NCBI RefSeq assembly: GCF_000284455.1
Contig: NC_017039.1
Location: forward strand, 2,160,001-2,192,000
Source: Synechocystis sp. PCC 6803 substr. PCC-P
GTDB taxonomy: Bacteria > Cyanobacteriota > Cyanobacteriia > Cyanobacteriales > Microcystaceae
Direction: 5' to 3'
DNA length: 32,000 nt
Under the pieces are notes generated by a model. That model did not search any database and was not told the DNA's origin. It saw only the letters and a list, made by a program, of their open reading frames with translations. Numbering within the stretch: the stretch's first letter is position 1; each line of letters starts with the position of its first letter. Below, in pieces: positions 14,942 to 21,785 of this stretch. Made by a program: the position numbers and the translations under genes.

Positions 14942-15730
14942 ATGGGTTACCTGCCAAGCCAAACTGATTTTTTCACCATACCTAAGGGGATGTCGTCCAT
15001 GGTTTTAACTTCCATTAGTACATCAAATATTCCGGCTAAGGTCAAAGGATCTAACTTGTTGGAACATAGTTTAAGAAAGGTTCATCCCAGCAAACATCAC
15101 CACTATCAAGTAGAAGACTTCTTTTGTTTTCAAATGAATTCCGGTTCCATTGTGGACTGGAATAACTGCCGCAATGTTCTTACCAGCGAAGATTTTATCG
15201 TCGGTTTAATTGACGGCTTGCAGGAAGAAGTGGGCAACGCCTCCAGTGTGGTGATGTACAACATCGGCAAGGAGTGGGGCCATTACGATGCCGAATTTTT
15301 TAACCAGTGGTTCCCGACGGAATTTGGCTATACCAGTTCTTTGAGCGAGCTCAATCTTAACTATGTGCTAGAAGGTTGGTGGTGGCCCTTCACCGCCCAG
15401 GGCTGGGGTAACTGGGCCATTGACCTCAGTGAACAGAAAAACGGCTTTTTGTTTGTGGATATTTTCGACTCCGCTGTGGCCCGGACGTTGGGGGATGTGG
15501 GTAAGCCTGTTTGCCATATTTACGCTGGCCTGTTGGCAGGTTTCTTTAGCCGCCTGGTGAATAAGTCCCTCAACTGCATTGAAATTCAGTGCTACGCCAT
15601 GGGGGAAACCTATTGCAAGTTTCTGATTGGTAAGCAAGACCGCATTGATGCCGCCACTTTCTGGCAAAACGAAGGGGCCAATGCCAACGATATTGCCACC
15701 AAACTCGTCAAAGGGGAATACCTGAAATGA
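14942..15730 (+). CDS. V4R (4-vinyl-reductase-type) domain protein, first gene of the cluster (slr0144-like)
   Basis: 262-aa ORF. The C-terminal V4R-type pattern is KPVCHIYAGLLAGFFSRLVNKSLNCIEIQCYAMGETYCKFLIG. An alternative start ATG at 14990 (MSSMVL...) cannot be excluded. The stop overlaps the next start (ATGA at 15727-15730). Confidence 0.8.
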   Translation: MGYLPSQTDFFTIPKGMSSMVLTSISTSNIPAKVKGSNLLEHSLRKVHPSKHHHYQVEDFFCFQMNSGSIVDWNNCRNVLTSEDFIVGLIDGLQEEVGNASSVVMYNIGKEWGHYDAEFFNQWFPTEFGYTSSLSELNLNYVLEGWWWPFTAQGWGNWAIDLSEQKNGFLFVDIFDSAVARTLGDVGKPVCHIYAGLLAGFFSRLVNKSLNCIEIQCYAMGETYCKFLIGKQDRIDAATFWQNEGANANDIATKLVKGEYLK

Positions 15731-16137
15731 TTCATCAAGCCCAGTGGGGGCAAATGAAGGTAGGGGATTTTTTCCGGGGCTACAACTGGCAGGGAGCACC
15801 GCCAGTGCTGGAATGTTCGGTAACGGAAGAAAGTTTGGATAATTTACCTTCTTTGCTCTGTCTGTCGGTGGCGGACTTTTTTACCCAGGCAAATTGGACT
15901 GGTCAGCGCCCCCATGCTCCAGAGGAAAATTTACCGGCCCTACATCGTCCCAAAGCTCCTCCCCGTCCCCTTTCTCTCACTGCTTCGGTGGCGGAATTTT
16001 GTCGGGGCATTGATTGGCATGGGCAAAGTTTATCGAGGGGAACCTTACCCCAGGCTAAGGCCCCAGTCCAGTCCAGGGAACCAGTGGCCAAGCTTGAACC
16101 AACCATCGGCTTGGAAGATCTTTCCGATTTATTTTAA
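15727..16137 (+). CDS. Small Pro-rich protein with three V[GA][DE]F[FC]...[ND]W.G motifs (slr0145-like)
   Basis: 136-aa ORF whose start overlaps the upstream stop by 4 nt (ATGA), which suggests translational coupling. Internal repeats lie at 15760-15795, 15868-15903 and 15988-16023. Confidence 0.7.
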   Translation: MIHQAQWGQMKVGDFFRGYNWQGAPPVLECSVTEESLDNLPSLLCLSVADFFTQANWTGQRPHAPEENLPALHRPKAPPRPLSLTASVAEFCRGIDWHGQSLSRGTLPQAKAPVQSREPVAKLEPTIGLEDLSDLF

Positions 16138-16151
16138 GGACCCGTAAAACT

Positions 16152-16664
16152 ATGCAAAAAGATTTTGAACGGCTTTTTCATCGGGCCGAAGACCACTATC
16201 TCCAACCTCCGGAAATCATTTCCTTTCATAAGCAACTGGGGTTGATGCGGGAACGGTTGAGTGCTTACCGTCTACTCCGGGACAACGAAATTGTCATTTT
16301 TCAGGCGATCGCCGATCGGTTAGAAGAGGAATTTAGCAACGTCCCGGCAACCCAATTACAACAGGCCCTTCTGCACTGGATTAGCGTTTTGCGCTATGGG
16401 GCCATGGCCATGCTCCTCAGTAATCCGGAATATCTCCAATACCGTTTACTGGAATGGCTCGAAGGTATGGTTCAAGCCCACGACCTATTGGCGATCGAAA
16501 TCCGACTATCCGCATTACTCAAGGAACAGTTGGAGTCCCTCTTGGGTGGCCCCCAATACCGTCTCCTAGAACCCTTTCTAGTTCAGGCCGACCAAACCAT
16601 CCTCGGCCAAGCCCCCGCCGCCGTTGCAGAGGAAGAAGCAGAAATGATGACCCTAGGAGAGTAA
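16152..16664 (+). CDS. Phycobiliprotein-fold (globin-like) protein lacking the bilin Cys (slr0146-like)
   Basis: 170 aa. It aligns by eye to the allophycocyanin N-terminus and to the helix-E region (...LLHWISVLRYGAMAML versus ...CLRDLDYYLRLITYGIV). The Cys position is Ala. Confidence 0.7.
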   Translation: MQKDFERLFHRAEDHYLQPPEIISFHKQLGLMRERLSAYRLLRDNEIVIFQAIADRLEEEFSNVPATQLQQALLHWISVLRYGAMAMLLSNPEYLQYRLLEWLEGMVQAHDLLAIEIRLSALLKEQLESLLGGPQYRLLEPFLVQADQTILGQAPAAVAEEEAEMMTLGE

Positions 16665-19802: not shown

Positions 19803-19870
19803 AACTCCAGTTTTAGCCCCCCGGCCAAGACTTTCTCTATTGCCTCCCAGACAACAACAACAGTAATAAT

Positions 19871-19922
19871 CGCCTAGGACAAAGGTAAGATGGAATCACT
19901 CCCCGTCCTAGGCGTATTTTTT
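19871..19922 (+). promoter_or_regulatory. Perfect 10-bp inverted repeat (cgcctaggac / gtcctaggcg) enclosing the SD-like AAAGG and the ATG at 19890, followed by TATTTTTT
   Basis: Left arm 19871-19880, right arm 19905-19914 (an exact reverse complement, checked base by base). The 24-nt loop contains aaaggtaagATG. T6 run at 19917-19922 sits immediately before a second in-frame ATG at 19923. Confidence 0.45.
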
Positions 19923-21785
19923 ATGGTAAAGACTGCCAATGTGGCGGTTATGCCGCTGTTTCCCCGCTCCCAATATAGAATCATTGGACAGATCGGACAG
20001 GGACAGTTCGGGCGGGTTTACTGTGCTATTCACCGGACTACGGGCAAAATGTATGCCCTGAAGGATTTAGAACATCGGGTATTTCCCACTAATAAATTTC
20101 TGCGGGAACTGTCCTATCTGTTGACCCTGCGCCATCCCAACATTGTGGCTTGCCATGGTTTGGAGTACCATCCTGGGGGCCGCTATTTGGTGATGGATTA
20201 CTGTGAGGGGGGAACTCTGCGGGACATTATTGATGGGGACGGAGATTTATGTTTGGCGGGAAAAATAGATTTATTAAGACAAATATTGCTGGGTTTGGCC
20301 CAAGCCCATCAGCATGACATTGTCCACTGTGACCTTAAACCGGAAAATATCCTGTTAATACCCCGGGCAGAGGGATGGCAGGTAAAAGTATCAGATTTTG
20401 GCATTGCTCGCCTAACAGCTAAAACGGGCAATCCTAATTTCAGCAAGGGTTACACTGGTTCTCCCGCCTATATGGCCCCGGAACGGTTCTACGGCAAGTT
20501 TTCTGTAGCTTCCGACATTTATGCTGTGGGTATTTTGCTGTACGAGCTCATCGTCGGCGATCGCCCGTTTTCAGGATTTCCTAAAGCGTTGCAGGCAGCC
20601 CATCTCAATGTCCGCTTAACCTTACCGCCGGAATTTCCTCCCTTACTTGCCCCCATTGTCCAACGGGCTTTGGAGAAATTACCCCAAAGACGATTTCCCA
20701 ATGCCACAGCCATGGCCAGTGATTTGGCCACGGTTCAAAAACAAATATTGGAACAGGATCCCCCCAGGGGTAACGGCTATCTTTACCATCACTTGGCTCC
20801 AGCTCCGCTAGCCTTTACGGCCACAGTCAAACACAGTACTCCCTTGTTATTTCCCATTAGTCACCTAACTGGGGCAGGACTTTGGTTATACCTAGGCAAT
20901 GGGGCCGAACTGTACCTATGGGAGTATGGCGATGGAAATGTGGAGCACCATCCTTTGCCCCGCTGGGCGTTGGGTTTACCGGGAACCATAGCTAATCTGG
21001 AAGTAAATCAAGACCAAATTAGCCTCTTAATCCAGGGAGGTGAACCAGGAGAATGGCAATTTTACCAGTGGCGAGAAACCCTACTTGGCGCTCTCTCTCT
21101 CCCCAAACCTCGCATTAATTTGCGGGCAGAGCGTCTGTTGGCCAATCTAAGCCCCGGTGGTAAAACTTTGGCAGTGGTAGTAGGCGATCGGGACAGTGAA
21201 AAAGGCCATTTTCAATTATGGCGCACTGACCACAGCTTACCTGTGGCTGCAGCCGTAGTAATTCGATGGCCGGATCAACTGCTCACCCTAGACCAAAACC
21301 ATGGCCTGTTGGTGCAGTCTCAATCAACGGCAAGTTATTGTCATACTATTTTTTTCCTGTTTAATCGGCGGGGGTCCCTGTTTCCAGCCTTTCGCCTTTC
21401 TTTTTTGGTATTTCAATTGGTAGTTAATCGCTACTCCCGCAACCATCTGTTTGGCTTGGCCGATAATGCTCCCTACACTGGTATTTTGATTCGTCTGCAA
21501 CCCCTGAAAGTCAATCGCATTGCCCTAACTATCCAGCCCCAATTCATTGAGCCTTTTCCCTGGGGTTATCTACTAGCCGATCGCCATGGGGAAGTAGCTT
21601 TGTTGGACTATGAAGGTTTTTTATTTGGCAATTTTTCCCTCGGGGAAACCATCACGGCGATCGCCCCCATGGGTCGCTATCTCTGTTTATTTGCTACCTG
21701 GCAGGGCAATGGGGGAACTTTACGTCTTCTGGATTTGGGTCCCCAAGTGGAAAACATTATTCGCCAACGCCAGGAAAAACGCTAA
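19890..21785 (+). CDS. spkG: Hanks-type Ser/Thr protein kinase with a C-terminal domain of about 340 aa of unknown fold (SpkG/slr0152-like)
   Basis: Kinase motifs:
- G-loop GQGQFGRVY.
- VAIK-like YALKD.
- Catalytic loop HCDLKPENIL.
- DFG.
- SPAYMAPE.

Alternative in-frame starts are at 19923 (MVKT...) and 19950 (MPLF...). Confidence 0.85.
   Translation: MESLPVLGVFFMVKTANVAVMPLFPRSQYRIIGQIGQGQFGRVYCAIHRTTGKMYALKDLEHRVFPTNKFLRELSYLLTLRHPNIVACHGLEYHPGGRYLVMDYCEGGTLRDIIDGDGDLCLAGKIDLLRQILLGLAQAHQHDIVHCDLKPENILLIPRAEGWQVKVSDFGIARLTAKTGNPNFSKGYTGSPAYMAPERFYGKFSVASDIYAVGILLYELIVGDRPFSGFPKALQAAHLNVRLTLPPEFPPLLAPIVQRALEKLPQRRFPNATAMASDLATVQKQILEQDPPRGNGYLYHHLAPAPLAFTATVKHSTPLLFPISHLTGAGLWLYLGNGAELYLWEYGDGNVEHHPLPRWALGLPGTIANLEVNQDQISLLIQGGEPGEWQFYQWRETLLGALSLPKPRINLRAERLLANLSPGGKTLAVVVGDRDSEKGHFQLWRTDHSLPVAAAVVIRWPDQLLTLDQNHGLLVQSQSTASYCHTIFFLFNRRGSLFPAFRLSFLVFQLVVNRYSRNHLFGLADNAPYTGILIRLQPLKVNRIALTIQPQFIEPFPWGYLLADRHGEVALLDYEGFLFGNFSLGETITAIAPMGRYLCLFATWQGNGGTLRLLDLGPQVENIIRQRQEKR

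Follow-up and report, generated by a model that had tools for sequence, protein, structure and literature searches.

The slr0144-slr0152 pap cluster of Synechocystis sp. PCC 6803: conserved unit, accessory genes and a possible tetrapyrrole-related function

The pap cluster and its closest described relatives

The slr0144-slr0152 'pap' (photosystem II assembly protein) cluster of Synechocystis sp. PCC 6803 has been described in several studies (Singh 2004; Wegener 2008; Yang 2014; Rast 2016; Angeleri 2018). A single transcription unit, TU2264, spans slr0144-0151, and its expression is affected by iron, light, carbon regime and redox inhibitors. Association of the pap proteins with photosystem II (PSII) is published: they co-purify with PSII and their levels rise upon induced chlorophyll synthesis. 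Slr0151 interacts with CP43 and D1 and has a role in PSII repair. Loss of the cluster causes a mild PSII phenotype with lowered PSII performance, and deletions of Fed4 or Fed5 (Fd5) have no growth or stress phenotype. Phosphorylation of Fd5 depends on SpkG; the link is indirect, through a ΔspkG mutant, and the literature holds no in vitro demonstration of SpkG kinase activity. In affinity purification-mass spectrometry (AP-MS) with GFP-tagged Slr0149, Slr0146 (7 PSM), Slr0144 (6), Slr0147 (6) and Slr0145 (2) were recovered; these counts are low, and the four proteins are absent from the control-column rows examined. No pigment or cofactor has been reported on any cyanobacterial pap member.

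A second described system is found in heterotrophic bacteria. Their pre-PcyA clusters carry heme oxygenase (HO), a ferredoxin-dependent bilin reductase (FDBR), an Fe-S protein, two V4R proteins and a bilin-binding globin (BBAG-1/BBAG-3), and slr0144-0149 descend from such clusters (Rockwell, Martin and Lagarias 2023). BBAGs are weakly fluorescent and are not antenna proteins; Slr0149 has been named a cyanobacterial BBAG (Rockwell 2023). Both systems have the Fe-S protein, the two distinct V4R types and a globin that resembles phycobiliproteins and bears a CXRD motif. However, neither HO nor FDBR was found in slr0144-slr0152 or elsewhere in the window, that is, the whole 32,000-nt stretch analysed here, whereas a plant-type ferredoxin, a TPR protein and a kinase are present. 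The cluster also includes the repeat protein Slr0145 and a second, Cys-less globin. Furthermore, bilin binding was demonstrated by experiment only for the non-cyanobacterial BBAGs (Rockwell 2023).

In the ORF list of the window, nine co-directional ORFs of the + strand span 14942-21785 (Table 1). All nine products match Slr0144-Slr0152 exactly, so that the locus is the described pap cluster, as a preliminary description had stated. The tight packing claimed there is also borne out by the sequence: an ATGA overlap at 15727-15730, gaps of 14 nt (16138-16151) and 2 nt (16665-16666), and a 31-nt gap (17333-17363) with AAGGAGG at 17352-17358 ahead of the start at 17364. Differences from the published operon are limited to annotated start sites: 243 versus 262 aa for slr0144, 221 versus 292 for slr0147, 160 versus 186 for slr0148 and 620 versus 631 for spkG, the RefSeq start of the latter lying 11 codons downstream, at 19923. 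Since the conserved part of Slr0144 begins at Met20 in the orthologue alignment, its shorter form, which is that of RefSeq, is likely the correct one.

Table 1. Genes of the pap cluster, in coordinates of the window
Gene and product	Coordinates	Strand	Basis
slr0144, V4R-A protein	14942..15730; likely start 14999, 243 aa	+	exact match, Pfam V4R
slr0145, predicted disordered repeat protein	15727..16137	+	exact match; no Pfam family
slr0146, Cys-less phycobiliprotein-fold protein	16152..16664	+	exact match, hhalign, AF2/Foldseek
slr0147, V4R-B protein	16667..17332	+	exact match to 221-aa RefSeq form, Pfam V4R
slr0148, ferredoxin 5 (Fed5/Fd5), GTG start	17364..17846	+	exact match to 160-aa form, Fer2
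slr0149, cyanobacterial BBAG-type globin with CRRD (CXRD)	17900..18370	+	exact match, PF00502
slr0150, plant-type [2Fe-2S] ferredoxin (Fed4)	18404..18715	+	exact match, NCBIfam fdx_plant
slr0151, membrane-anchored TPR protein	18840..19802	+	exact match, TPR_1/TPR_2, hydrophobic segment
slr0152, Hanks-type Ser/Thr kinase SpkG	19890..21785	+	exact match, Pkinase

V4R and phycobiliprotein-fold proteins

Slr0144 and Slr0147 (Pfam V4R, E 1.3e-22 and 2.7e-18) share their domain with the sigma-54 activators PoxR, MopR, DmpR and XylR, as well as with MsvR and BchJ. In contrast with the activators, they stand alone, with neither AAA+ nor DNA-binding domains, and they score well under the equivalog cut-offs of MsvR and BchJ. 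In Slr0144, C191, E214, C217 and C225 are invariant (70/70 orthologues), and the spacing Cys-x23-Glu-x2-Cys-x7-Cys is that of the structural zinc site of the PoxR/MopR/DmpR/XylR sensory domains, with identical ligands (alignment to 5fru). V4R-A thus keeps the Cys/Glu/Cys/Cys zinc site of the phenol-sensor domains, and V4R-B has lost it: in Slr0147, Q175 and N186 (80/80) occupy the positions of the Glu and of the last Cys. This difference holds in every orthologue (alignments of 70 and 80). Slr0147 has conserved cysteines of its own, C71 (76/80), C110 (79/80), C173 (78/80) and C178 (80/80). A link from V4R to BchJ-type tetrapyrrole handling had been proposed; the argument is weak, because Slr0144 reaches 22 bits against a BchJ cut-off of 74, and is thus not BchJ, and because its nearest solved relatives are phenol sensors.

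Slr0149 belongs to the Pfam Phycobilisome family (PF00502, E 7e-15). Slr0146 scores 16.4 bits, under the cut-off of 22.2. However, comparison of Slr0146 with the Slr0149 family by hhalign gives a probability of 99.3% (E 8e-21), and the best 50 PDB matches listed by Foldseek for the Slr0146 AF2 model (pLDDT 82) are all phycobiliproteins, with TM ~0.6. Slr0146 is therefore a phycobiliprotein-fold protein despite its Pfam score. Its model shares the full-length fold of the light-harvesting phycobiliproteins (allophycocyanin and phycocyanin subunits, PF00502), N-terminal helices included, at 13-19% identity (Foldseek alignments, Slr0146 only). The CXRD attachment motif is common to these proteins and Slr0149, the CRRD of which aligns with the CQRD of a solved phycocyanin. 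Among Slr0149 orthologues, Cys76 is found in 50/67 (Trp in 11), R78 in 60/67 and D79 in 67/67. By contrast, Slr0146 has no Cys at all and reads A-L-L-H where the motif is expected (family consensus A-x-K-H); H75 is kept in 59/77 orthologues and W76 in 71/77. The globin-fold proteins had been described as bilin-binding folds; of the two, only Slr0149 has the attachment motif. Two further features set the pair apart from antenna proteins: no lyase genes adjoin them, and related BBAGs fluoresce weakly.

These features bear on a possible role as a carrier or buffer of cyclic tetrapyrroles. While PSII is being assembled and repaired, chlorophyll, chlorophyllide, pheophytin or heme would be bound for a time by the V4R pair and the His-bearing, Cys-less Slr0146, which would protect and deliver the pigment, and the bilin heritage would be vestigial. 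Such a role would account for a conserved His in place of the bilin-contacting Asp in Slr0146, with a conserved Trp next to it, for the persistence of V4R-A, Slr0145, Slr0146 and V4R-B as a strict unit at loci without Slr0149 or Fd5 (see below), and for the behaviour of the pap proteins toward PSII and chlorophyll synthesis; moreover, V4R is named for BchJ, whose model is weakly matched. It is nevertheless considered unlikely: BchJ identity fails, phenols and not tetrapyrroles are the ligands of the nearest V4R domains with solved structures, the phycobiliprotein pocket is known for linear tetrapyrroles only, and bilin-making enzymes adjoin the non-cyanobacterial relatives.

Conservation of the cluster and its accessory genes

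A genome scan anchored on Slr0147 found relatives in 284 species genomes. The best-matching 80 of these 284 loci, a sample biased to Synechocystis relatives, show a gene order retained over many cyanobacterial orders and gave all the following counts: slr0144 is present in 69/71 loci, slr0145 in 73/77, slr0146 in 78/78, slr0148 in 77/79, slr0149 in 64/74, slr0150 in only 39/73, slr0151 in 63/69 and spkG in 43/64, the kinase thus missing from a third. The Cys-less Slr0146 is therefore retained more strictly than the CXRD-bearing Slr0149. At the loci sampled, slr0147 is never apart from slr0144-0146. In contrast, slr0148-0149 are lost in the Thermosynechococcus loci and in metagenome locus L082, and have moved as a pair in loci L070 and L080. 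Minimal four-gene clusters lack Slr0149, Fd5 and the kinase, and the Thermosynechococcus loci have no Slr0149 either; thus, the universal function of the core can lie neither in a bilin on Slr0149 nor in electrons from Fd5. What evolution holds together is the single unit slr0144-0145-0146-0147 rather than a pair of triplets, with Fd5, Slr0149, Fd4, the TPR protein and the kinase as accessory members.

This organization bears on the two paralogous modules seen in the preliminary description. The V4R proteins (22% identity, E 7e-21) and the globins (23% identity) are each old paralogues, at about 22% identity, placed in the same relative order. Because both V4R types occur at every locus sampled and both clades also occur in non-cyanobacterial clusters (Rockwell et al.), the duplication is ancient. 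Two parallel V4R:globin modules, each with its own small partner and set side by side by tandem duplication, would explain why V4R, small gene and globin follow one another twice in this order and why the two pairs have diverged alike. However, the middle genes show no relation to each other, one encoding a disordered repeat protein and the other a [2Fe-2S] ferredoxin, the ferredoxins are of different families, and the second 'module' does not behave as a unit, since some loci lack slr0148 and slr0149 or have them elsewhere. In addition, the zinc site separates both V4R types in every orthologue, and the Slr0149 pull-down brings down both V4R proteins and Slr0146, which fits a single complex. 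An architecture of two modules is thus very improbable, even if the paralogy and the order on which it was based are real.

Slr0145 has no family in the Pfam search. The triple motif noticed earlier (V.DFF.G.NW.G) is real and conserved: Slr0145 has W..L.V.[DE]F[FC]...NW.G three times, with DLSDLF at the C-terminus. The protein is predicted to be disordered (AF2 mean pLDDT 37, pTM 0.16), with a variable number of repeats. An exhaustive HMM search found 182 representative clusters. Orthologues at genome loci have 1-4 strict regex matches to the motif (at most 5 by eye), and the longest relatives have profile matches in at most 5 stretches, with about 8 motifs by eye. At the loci sampled, slr0145 is invariably flanked by V4R-A and the Cys-less globin; in three of four metagenome loci (L082, L085, L086) its start shares 4 nt with the end of the V4R-A gene, as it does in the window, and in L084 this overlap is 20 nt.

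The two ferredoxins belong to different families, with no similarity by BLASTP. Fd5 (Fer2, E 1.3e-9) has E. coli Fdx and putidaredoxin as best PDB relatives and is an adrenodoxin/putidaredoxin-type [2Fe-2S] protein, with the ligands C-x5-C-x2-C-x35-C of this type (C37, C43, C46 and C82, invariant in 79/79). It is unlike those ferredoxins in having about 60 additional, conserved residues at its C-terminus, in its reported SpkG-dependent phosphorylation and in its score of 51 bits against an fdx_isc cut-off of 132. Slr0150 (Pfam Fer2) reaches 113 bits with NCBIfam fdx_plant (cut-off 81). Slr0151 matches TPR_1 and TPR_2 at residues 185-250, and a hydrophobic stretch at residues 26-59 makes 'membrane TPR protein' a reasonable name. 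SpkG carries a Pkinase domain (residues 29-269, E 2.5e-49) with GQGQFGRV, YALK, HCDLKPEN, DFG and APE, and its C-terminal half (about 340 aa) has no Pfam or PDB sequence match. The preliminary description linked the cluster to PSII and named SpkG and Slr0151 as controlling Fd5 phosphorylation; both statements agree with publications.

Another possibility is a redox or small-molecule sensing and signalling module. The V4R proteins would detect a metabolite or the redox state of thiols, electron pressure would be read out by the ferredoxins, SpkG and Slr0151 would relay the signal to PSII repair or other targets, and the globins would be sensor chromophore proteins and not carriers. V4R-A is closest to the domains with which PoxR/MopR sense their ligands and to the V4R of MsvR, a regulator that senses redox state. 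This points to such a module, as do the four conserved Cys of V4R-B outside its degenerate zinc site, the co-conservation of kinase (43/64) and TPR adaptor (63/69) in the same sample from the best 80 of 284, the responsive expression and the non-antenna character of BBAGs. On another hand, a third of the loci and the minimal clusters lack the kinase, an output domain, DNA-binding or other, is missing, the sole substrate so far linked to SpkG, indirectly, is itself a cluster member, and mutant phenotypes are mild. This possibility is accordingly given little weight.

A proposed tetrapyrrole-holding complex at PSII

The pap cluster is real and known; the preliminary statement that no biochemical activity is assigned agrees with the literature on the cyanobacterial proteins. 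Both the cluster and the preliminary idea of a ferredoxin-coupled tetrapyrrole device were already in print (Wegener 2008, as related by the papers citing it; Rockwell 2023); the idea is plausible and unproven. The reading tentatively favoured here, at slightly less than even chances, is that the cluster is the cyanobacterial descendant of heterotroph bilin-biosynthesis clusters, detached from HO and bilin reductase, and that its products form one tetrapyrrole-holding complex at PSII. Published AP-MS shows the soluble pap proteins in one complex. This would hold a tetrapyrrole, most probably a bilin that occupies the phycobiliprotein-type pocket of Slr0149 and is covalently bound through Cys76. 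The two V4R proteins would be ligand-binding or hand-off subunits, Slr0145 a flexible multivalent tether, and Fd5 a redox partner tuned by the SpkG-dependent phosphorylation known from the literature. According to the literature, Slr0151 docks the assembly at thylakoid PSII intermediates (CP43/D1), where PSII performance drops upon loss of the cluster.

Several observations speak for this reading: the exact protein matches, the ancestry and BBAG bilin binding reported by Rockwell 2023, the AP-MS partners of Slr0149, the published PSII link, Fd5 phosphorylation, TU2264, the kept CXRD of Slr0149, the gene order with its 4-nt overlaps, the V4R-A zinc site and the disorder of Slr0145. Against it stand the loss of Cys76 of Slr0149 in 17/67 orthologues, which have Trp or another residue there, the loci without Slr0149, the lack of the Cys and Asp of the bilin motif in Slr0146, the globin that is always kept, the silent Fed4 and Fed5 deletions, the absence of HO and FDBR from the window, the low PSM counts and the missing in vitro activity of SpkG. 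As to the family, its conserved heart consists of V4R-A (of the zinc-site type), the disordered multi-repeat protein, the Cys-less phycobiliprotein-fold protein and V4R-B, to which most, not all, cyanobacteria add Fd5, Slr0149, Slr0151, Fed4 and SpkG.

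Identity and organization of the pap locus

An exact-sequence look-up returned all nine products encoded between positions 14942 and 21785 of the window as Slr0144 to Slr0152, in the same order and on one strand. The locus is therefore the 'pap' operon of Synechocystis sp. PCC 6803. The preliminary description had named slr0144-slr0152, together with a link to PSII and to the proteins SpkG, Slr0151 and Fd5. This identification agrees with both the nine exact matches and the literature. The nine plus-strand ORFs, packed head to tail, are all present in the ORF calls, and the four junctions described earlier were read in the sequence (Table). 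RefSeq starts show small shifts with respect to the longest-ORF starts. Codons 1-19 of the slr0144 ORF (14942-14998) are not conserved; conservation among orthologues begins at Met20, and the RefSeq start is at 14999. For SpkG, the RefSeq start (19923) lies 11 codons inside the ORF start (19890), leaving out 19890-19922.

In the literature, transcription unit TU2264 corresponds to slr0144-slr0151, the operon is said to end with spkG, and an antisense RNA to slr0144 increases under iron limitation. Scanning 14500-22100 for promoter and terminator consensus sequences was uninformative, as there were fewer matches than in shuffled sequence, and neither Rfam, at gathering thresholds, nor ARAGORN returned anything within the window. 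Two perfect inverted repeats having TTTGTA/TACAAA half-sites in common are found in the 340 nt that precede slr0144. One of them, CTTTGTA-N5-TACAAAG, occurs once in the window, where none is expected. In Synechocystis salina it also precedes the slr0144 orthologue (L001:8099-8115), and it is absent from every other locus; it is a possible operator. The genes on either side of the cluster bear no relation to it.

Table. Features of the slr0144-slr0152 region, with positions in the window and, for the pap genes, the fraction of loci in which the gene is found near slr0147
Feature	Window position	Strand	Loci near slr0147
FG-GAP/Calx-beta/DUF4114 protein, 3240 aa	324-10046		
AAA-like and WD40 protein, 1191 aa	11024-14599		
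Inverted repeat TTTTGTA-N18-TACAAAA	14684-14715		
Inverted repeat CTTTGTA-N5-TACAAAG	14767-14785		
slr0144 (V4R-A)		+	69/71
slr0144/slr0145 ATGA overlap	15727-15730		
slr0145 (disordered repeat protein)		+	73/77
14-nt gap	ahead of 16152		
slr0146 (Cys-less globin)		+	78/78
2-nt gap	16665-16666		
slr0147 (V4R-B)		+	
AAGGAGG motif in 31-nt gap, upstream of GTG start 17364	17352-17358		
slr0148 (Fd5)	17364-17846	+	77/79
slr0149 (CXRD globin)		+	64/74
slr0150 (Fed4)		+	39/73
slr0151 (TPR protein)		+	63/69
slr0152 (SpkG)		+	43/64
SpkG residues ~290-631	20760-21785	+	
DUF6930/DUF7309 protein	21857-23611	-	
Caspase-domain (Peptidase_C14) protein	23697-25910	-	

Conservation of the neighbourhood

One genome per GTDB species was scanned with the Slr0147 alignment as query, and relatives were found in 284 genomes. 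The best 80 of these 284 loci (L001-L080) formed the sample; they contain the closest relatives and are all cyanobacterial, one of them (L040) being labelled Candidatus Gracilibacteria. Their ORFs were searched with the nine window proteins, and the counts (Table) are restricted to loci with enough flanking DNA. Loci bearing the labels Synechocystis, Crocosphaera, Chroococcidiopsis, Thermosynechococcus, Acaryochloridaceae, Microcoleus and Kamptonema, and others besides, retain the gene order.

Several variants depart from this arrangement. In four of six Thermosynechococcus loci (L042, L044, L046 and L049, with enough downstream sequence), slr0149 and slr0150 are missing from the cluster and orthologues of slr0144-slr0148, slr0151 and slr0152 are retained. 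Two Microcoleus loci (L070, L080) have slr0148-slr0149 as a displaced, inverted pair ~2 kb downstream of slr0147; thus, the ferredoxin and the CXRD globin travel together, apart from V4R-B. Only slr0144-slr0147 are seen in two Kamptonema loci (L074, L078), the L074 sequence ending too soon after slr0147 to show genes further downstream. Finally, a minimal variant occurs in metagenomes (L082:7273-11661, likewise L083 and 10 similar places), where V4R-A, a Slr0145 relative, a Slr0146-type globin and V4R-B follow one another. In L082, the Slr0145 relative has 419 residues, with 5 profile-matching stretches and ~8 motifs by eye, and the globin is Cys-less and carries ALSHW. A pentapeptide-repeat protein gene comes after V4R-B, and genes for a ferredoxin, a Slr0149-type globin, a TPR protein or a kinase are missing within 8 kb of this minimal cluster.

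Considering the neighbour counts together with the Thermosynechococcus, Microcoleus and L082/L083 variants, the evolutionary unit among the closest 80 of 284 loci is slr0144-slr0147, the remaining genes forming an accessory set. [quoted passage not shown] The second of the two modules read in the preliminary description does not behave as a unit: the order is widely kept, but slr0148-slr0149 are absent or displaced in some loci.

Other features of the surroundings may be mentioned. A pentapeptide-repeat protein of ~260 aa is encoded ~0.4-1 kb upstream of the slr0144 orthologue in 26 of the loci L001-L080. Such upstream ORFs are on the same strand as the cluster in 30/33 cases (for example L039:7189-7995), and at this place the Synechocystis window has the AAA-like/WD40 protein. 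A search of plasmids gave matches only in Acaryochloris, where two conjugative plasmids bear additional cluster copies. On pREC2 of Acaryochloris marina MBIC10699 (L081, NZ_AP026077.1 175363-190022), the order is V4R, small hypothetical protein, globin-like, V4R, 2Fe-2S ferredoxin, 'allophycocyanin' and a 338-aa protein, and the copy adjoins an ISL3 transposase. On NZ_AP026078.1, the V4R-B match alone was seen. The metagenome-assembled genome labelled 'Candidatus Gracilibacteria' (L040, JAAUUT010000040.1) contains a complete cluster of the cyanobacterial type (59% identity to Slr0147) and is probably represented here by a mis-binned cyanobacterial contig.

Properties of the encoded proteins

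Both V4R proteins score above the Pfam gathering threshold of 31 bits for PF02830 (Slr0144, 80.1 bits; Slr0147, 66.2 bits). The BchJ equivalog TIGR02019 ('bacteriochlorophyll 4-vinyl reductase') gives Slr0144 22.1 bits against a cut-off of 74.3, over the V4R part only, and does not match Slr0147 (NCBIfam). The two proteins share 22% identity over 218 residues (E 7e-21). Since cyanobacterial orthologues are 51-97% identical to the Synechocystis proteins and both V4R types occur in essentially every locus, the V4R duplication is older than the radiation sampled, in agreement with Rockwell's clades A and B. The two types differ consistently at the zinc site. In V4R-A, C191, E214, C217 and C225 are invariant (70/70 orthologues). 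These residues align with those of PoxR (5fru), and their 23/3/8 spacing matches the structural zinc site in the sensory domains of PoxR, MopR, DmpR and XylR. V4R-A is thus predicted to contain a metal site of the PoxR/MopR/DmpR type. In contrast, V4R-B has Gln175 and Asn186 at two of the zinc-ligand positions in 80/80 orthologues and lacks this ligand set; it has conserved cysteines of its own (Cys71, Cys110, Cys173 and Cys178).

The two globin-fold proteins are also distant from each other (23% identity, E 4e-6). Slr0149 matches the phycobilisome protein family PF00502 with 55.7 bits, above the Pfam threshold of 22.2, to be compared with 16.4 bits for Slr0146. Despite this sub-threshold score, Slr0146 is a phycobiliprotein-fold protein, because many of its orthologues do pass PF00502, because hhalign relates its family to that of Slr0149 with a probability of 99.3% (E 8e-21), and because the 50 best-listed Foldseek PDB matches to its AlphaFold2 model (pLDDT 82) are all phycobiliproteins, over the full length. 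Slr0149 carries the CXRD motif as CRRD. Its family keeps [C/W]xRD, the Asp being invariant, the Arg present in 60/67 orthologues and the Cys in only 50/67. Slr0146 contains no cysteine and no CXRD motif; at this position its family displays A-x-K-H and then a Trp, the His being retained in 59/77 members and the Trp in 71/77. The Cys-less, His-bearing Slr0146 is kept more strictly than the CXRD globin.

Slr0145 matches no Pfam family and is predicted to be disordered (pLDDT 37, AlphaFold2 with a shallow alignment). Its triple motif, pointed out in the preliminary description, is genuine and conserved. A word-based search had made Slr0145 appear a Synechocystis-only protein, a view overturned by an exhaustive HMM search and by synteny. 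The family comprises 182 representative clusters, whose members display W..L.V.[DE]F[FC]...NW.G motifs in variable number, separated by Pro-rich linkers, and a [DN]LS[DN]LF C-terminus. One to four motifs are counted in the genome loci with a strict regular expression, and ~8 by eye in the longest relatives. Matches of the profile in proteins of 2300-3600 aa were rejected as spurious, two of the three being cadherin/Ig-repeat adhesins and the third having only DUF6333. Every member with visible context is encoded between V4R-A and the Cys-less globin. The start of slr0145 lies inside the end of the V4R-A gene; this overlap measures 4 nt in 3/4 metagenome loci, as in the window, and 20 nt in L084, which suggests that the two genes are translationally coupled.

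Slr0148 (Fd5) is a Fer2 protein of the adrenodoxin/ISC-like type, adjoining V4R/globin genes in 77/79 loci. Its four cysteine ligands (C-x5-C-x2-C-x35-C) are invariant and its C-terminal extension is conserved. Slr0150 (Fed4) is of the plant type (TIGR02008, 113.3 bits for a cut-off of 81.15), with C43, C48, C51 and C83 in 40/40 sequences. BLASTP detects no similarity between Slr0148 and Slr0150, which belong to different [2Fe-2S] families. The preliminary description had read the gene order as two paralogous modules. As far as the V4R and globin pairs are concerned, the low but detectable identities agree with this reading; on the other hand, the middle genes slr0145, encoding a disordered repeat protein, and slr0148, encoding a ferredoxin, are unrelated. 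That the proteins would work as two parallel V4R:globin modules therefore seems highly improbable.

Thr18 and Thr72 of Slr0148, the reported phosphosites of Fd5, are found in 79/79 and 74/79 orthologues, respectively. Phosphorylation of Fd5 has been reported to need SpkG. SpkG is a predicted Hanks-type Ser/Thr kinase, on the basis of its Pkinase match (Pfam, E 2.5e-49) and of the Gly loop, catalytic Lys, HxD, DFG and APE motifs, all intact in the translation. Neither Pfam nor a PDB sequence search gave a match for its residues ~290-631; the composition of this C-terminal half, judged by eye, suggests a beta-rich repeat domain. Pfam also confirmed the TPR assignment of Slr0151, a protein that interacts with CP43 and D1 and is required for efficient PSII repair.

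Bilin-related ancestry and possible ligands

Co-regulation of the slr0144 cluster as a unit was noted in 2004, and the name pap (PSII assembly proteins) goes back to Wegener et al. 2008. Co-fractionation and AP-MS with Slr0149-GFP recovered Slr0146, Slr0144, Slr0147 and Slr0145. A review described Fed4 and Fed5 as dispensable and included a drawing of the conserved neighbourhood, under the name 'cluster e'. The descent of slr0144-slr0149 from clusters of non-photosynthetic bacteria was shown by Rockwell, Martin and Lagarias (2023); in those clusters, genes for heme oxygenase and a pre-PcyA bilin reductase accompany those for an Fe-S protein, V4R proteins of two clades and a BBAG. Such BBAGs bind bilins, and the cyanobacterial proteins were considered to be of unknown function and probably non-essential (Rockwell 2023). 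As in these clusters, an Fe-S protein gene (slr0148) stands here beside V4R and globin genes, two distinct V4R types, 22% identical, differ consistently at the zinc site, and a CXRD globin is present, Slr0149, accompanied by a second globin without the motif. Unlike the pre-PcyA clusters, the locus has no adjacent heme oxygenase or ferredoxin-dependent bilin reductase, and neither enzyme is found among the window's ORFs. This absence is a stated hallmark of the cyanobacterial variant (Rockwell 2023). The 'ferredoxin-coupled tetrapyrrole device' of the preliminary description was therefore already anticipated in print. More generally, the cluster and its conservation have been published, as have the physical complex, the connection with PSII, that between kinase and ferredoxin, and the idea of a bilin ligand. 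A 2026 follow-up to Rockwell 2023 added nothing on the V4R proteins, and searching the literature for work that links V4R and bilin gave nothing beyond the Rockwell papers.

According to the literature, a complex is formed by the pap proteins, which are also associated with PSII and influence its performance. A tetrapyrrole may be bound in this complex, most probably a bilin that would occupy the phycobiliprotein-type pocket of Slr0149. The two V4R proteins would then be ligand-binding or hand-off subunits, Slr0145 would be a multivalent tether and Fd5 a regulated redox partner. We regard this composite mechanism as plausible but tentative. Bilin binding has been demonstrated only for the non-cyanobacterial BBAG-1, -2 and -3 (Rockwell 2023). 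The mechanism is weakened by the observation that some lineages do without Slr0149 and Fd5 but not without the Cys-less globin, so that two rival explanations stay alive. In the first one, a carrier of cyclic tetrapyrroles would be centred on Slr0146 and the V4R pair; the retention of the Cys-less globin where Slr0149 and Fd5 have been lost speaks in its favor, and we nevertheless hold it to be unlikely. The second one, a sensing module composed of V4R, ferredoxin and kinase, is about as unlikely as the first.

The functional core might also be restricted to the quartet V4R-A, Slr0145, Slr0146 and V4R-B, with a non-bilin ligand on Slr0146 and with Slr0145 as a scaffold. Slr0146 would have swapped the Cys...Asp bilin motif for the conserved His-Trp and would bind another ligand, for instance a cyclic tetrapyrrole via the His. 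Slr0145 would represent an undescribed disordered family, the motifs of which would string several V4R/globin units at PSII biogenesis sites. Taken as a whole, this possibility appears improbable.

The zinc-site contrast between V4R-A and V4R-B, the motif conservation of Slr0146 and Slr0149, the Slr0145 family, and the Fd5 ligands and extension were not found in the literature on the cluster examined here. The invariant quartet, the His-bearing Cys-less globin, the Slr0145 family and the asymmetric zinc site are leads rather than a discovery, and they leave the status of the cluster unchanged. The quartet, the strict retention of Slr0146, the slr0145 overlap and the one-sided zinc site narrow the choice of proteins and combinations for ligand tests. 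Among the 'function unknown' loci of cyanobacterial photosynthesis, the cluster is one of the better known; it is connected with the assembly and repair of PSII as well as with the evolutionary origin of phycobiliproteins and phycocyanobilin synthesis.
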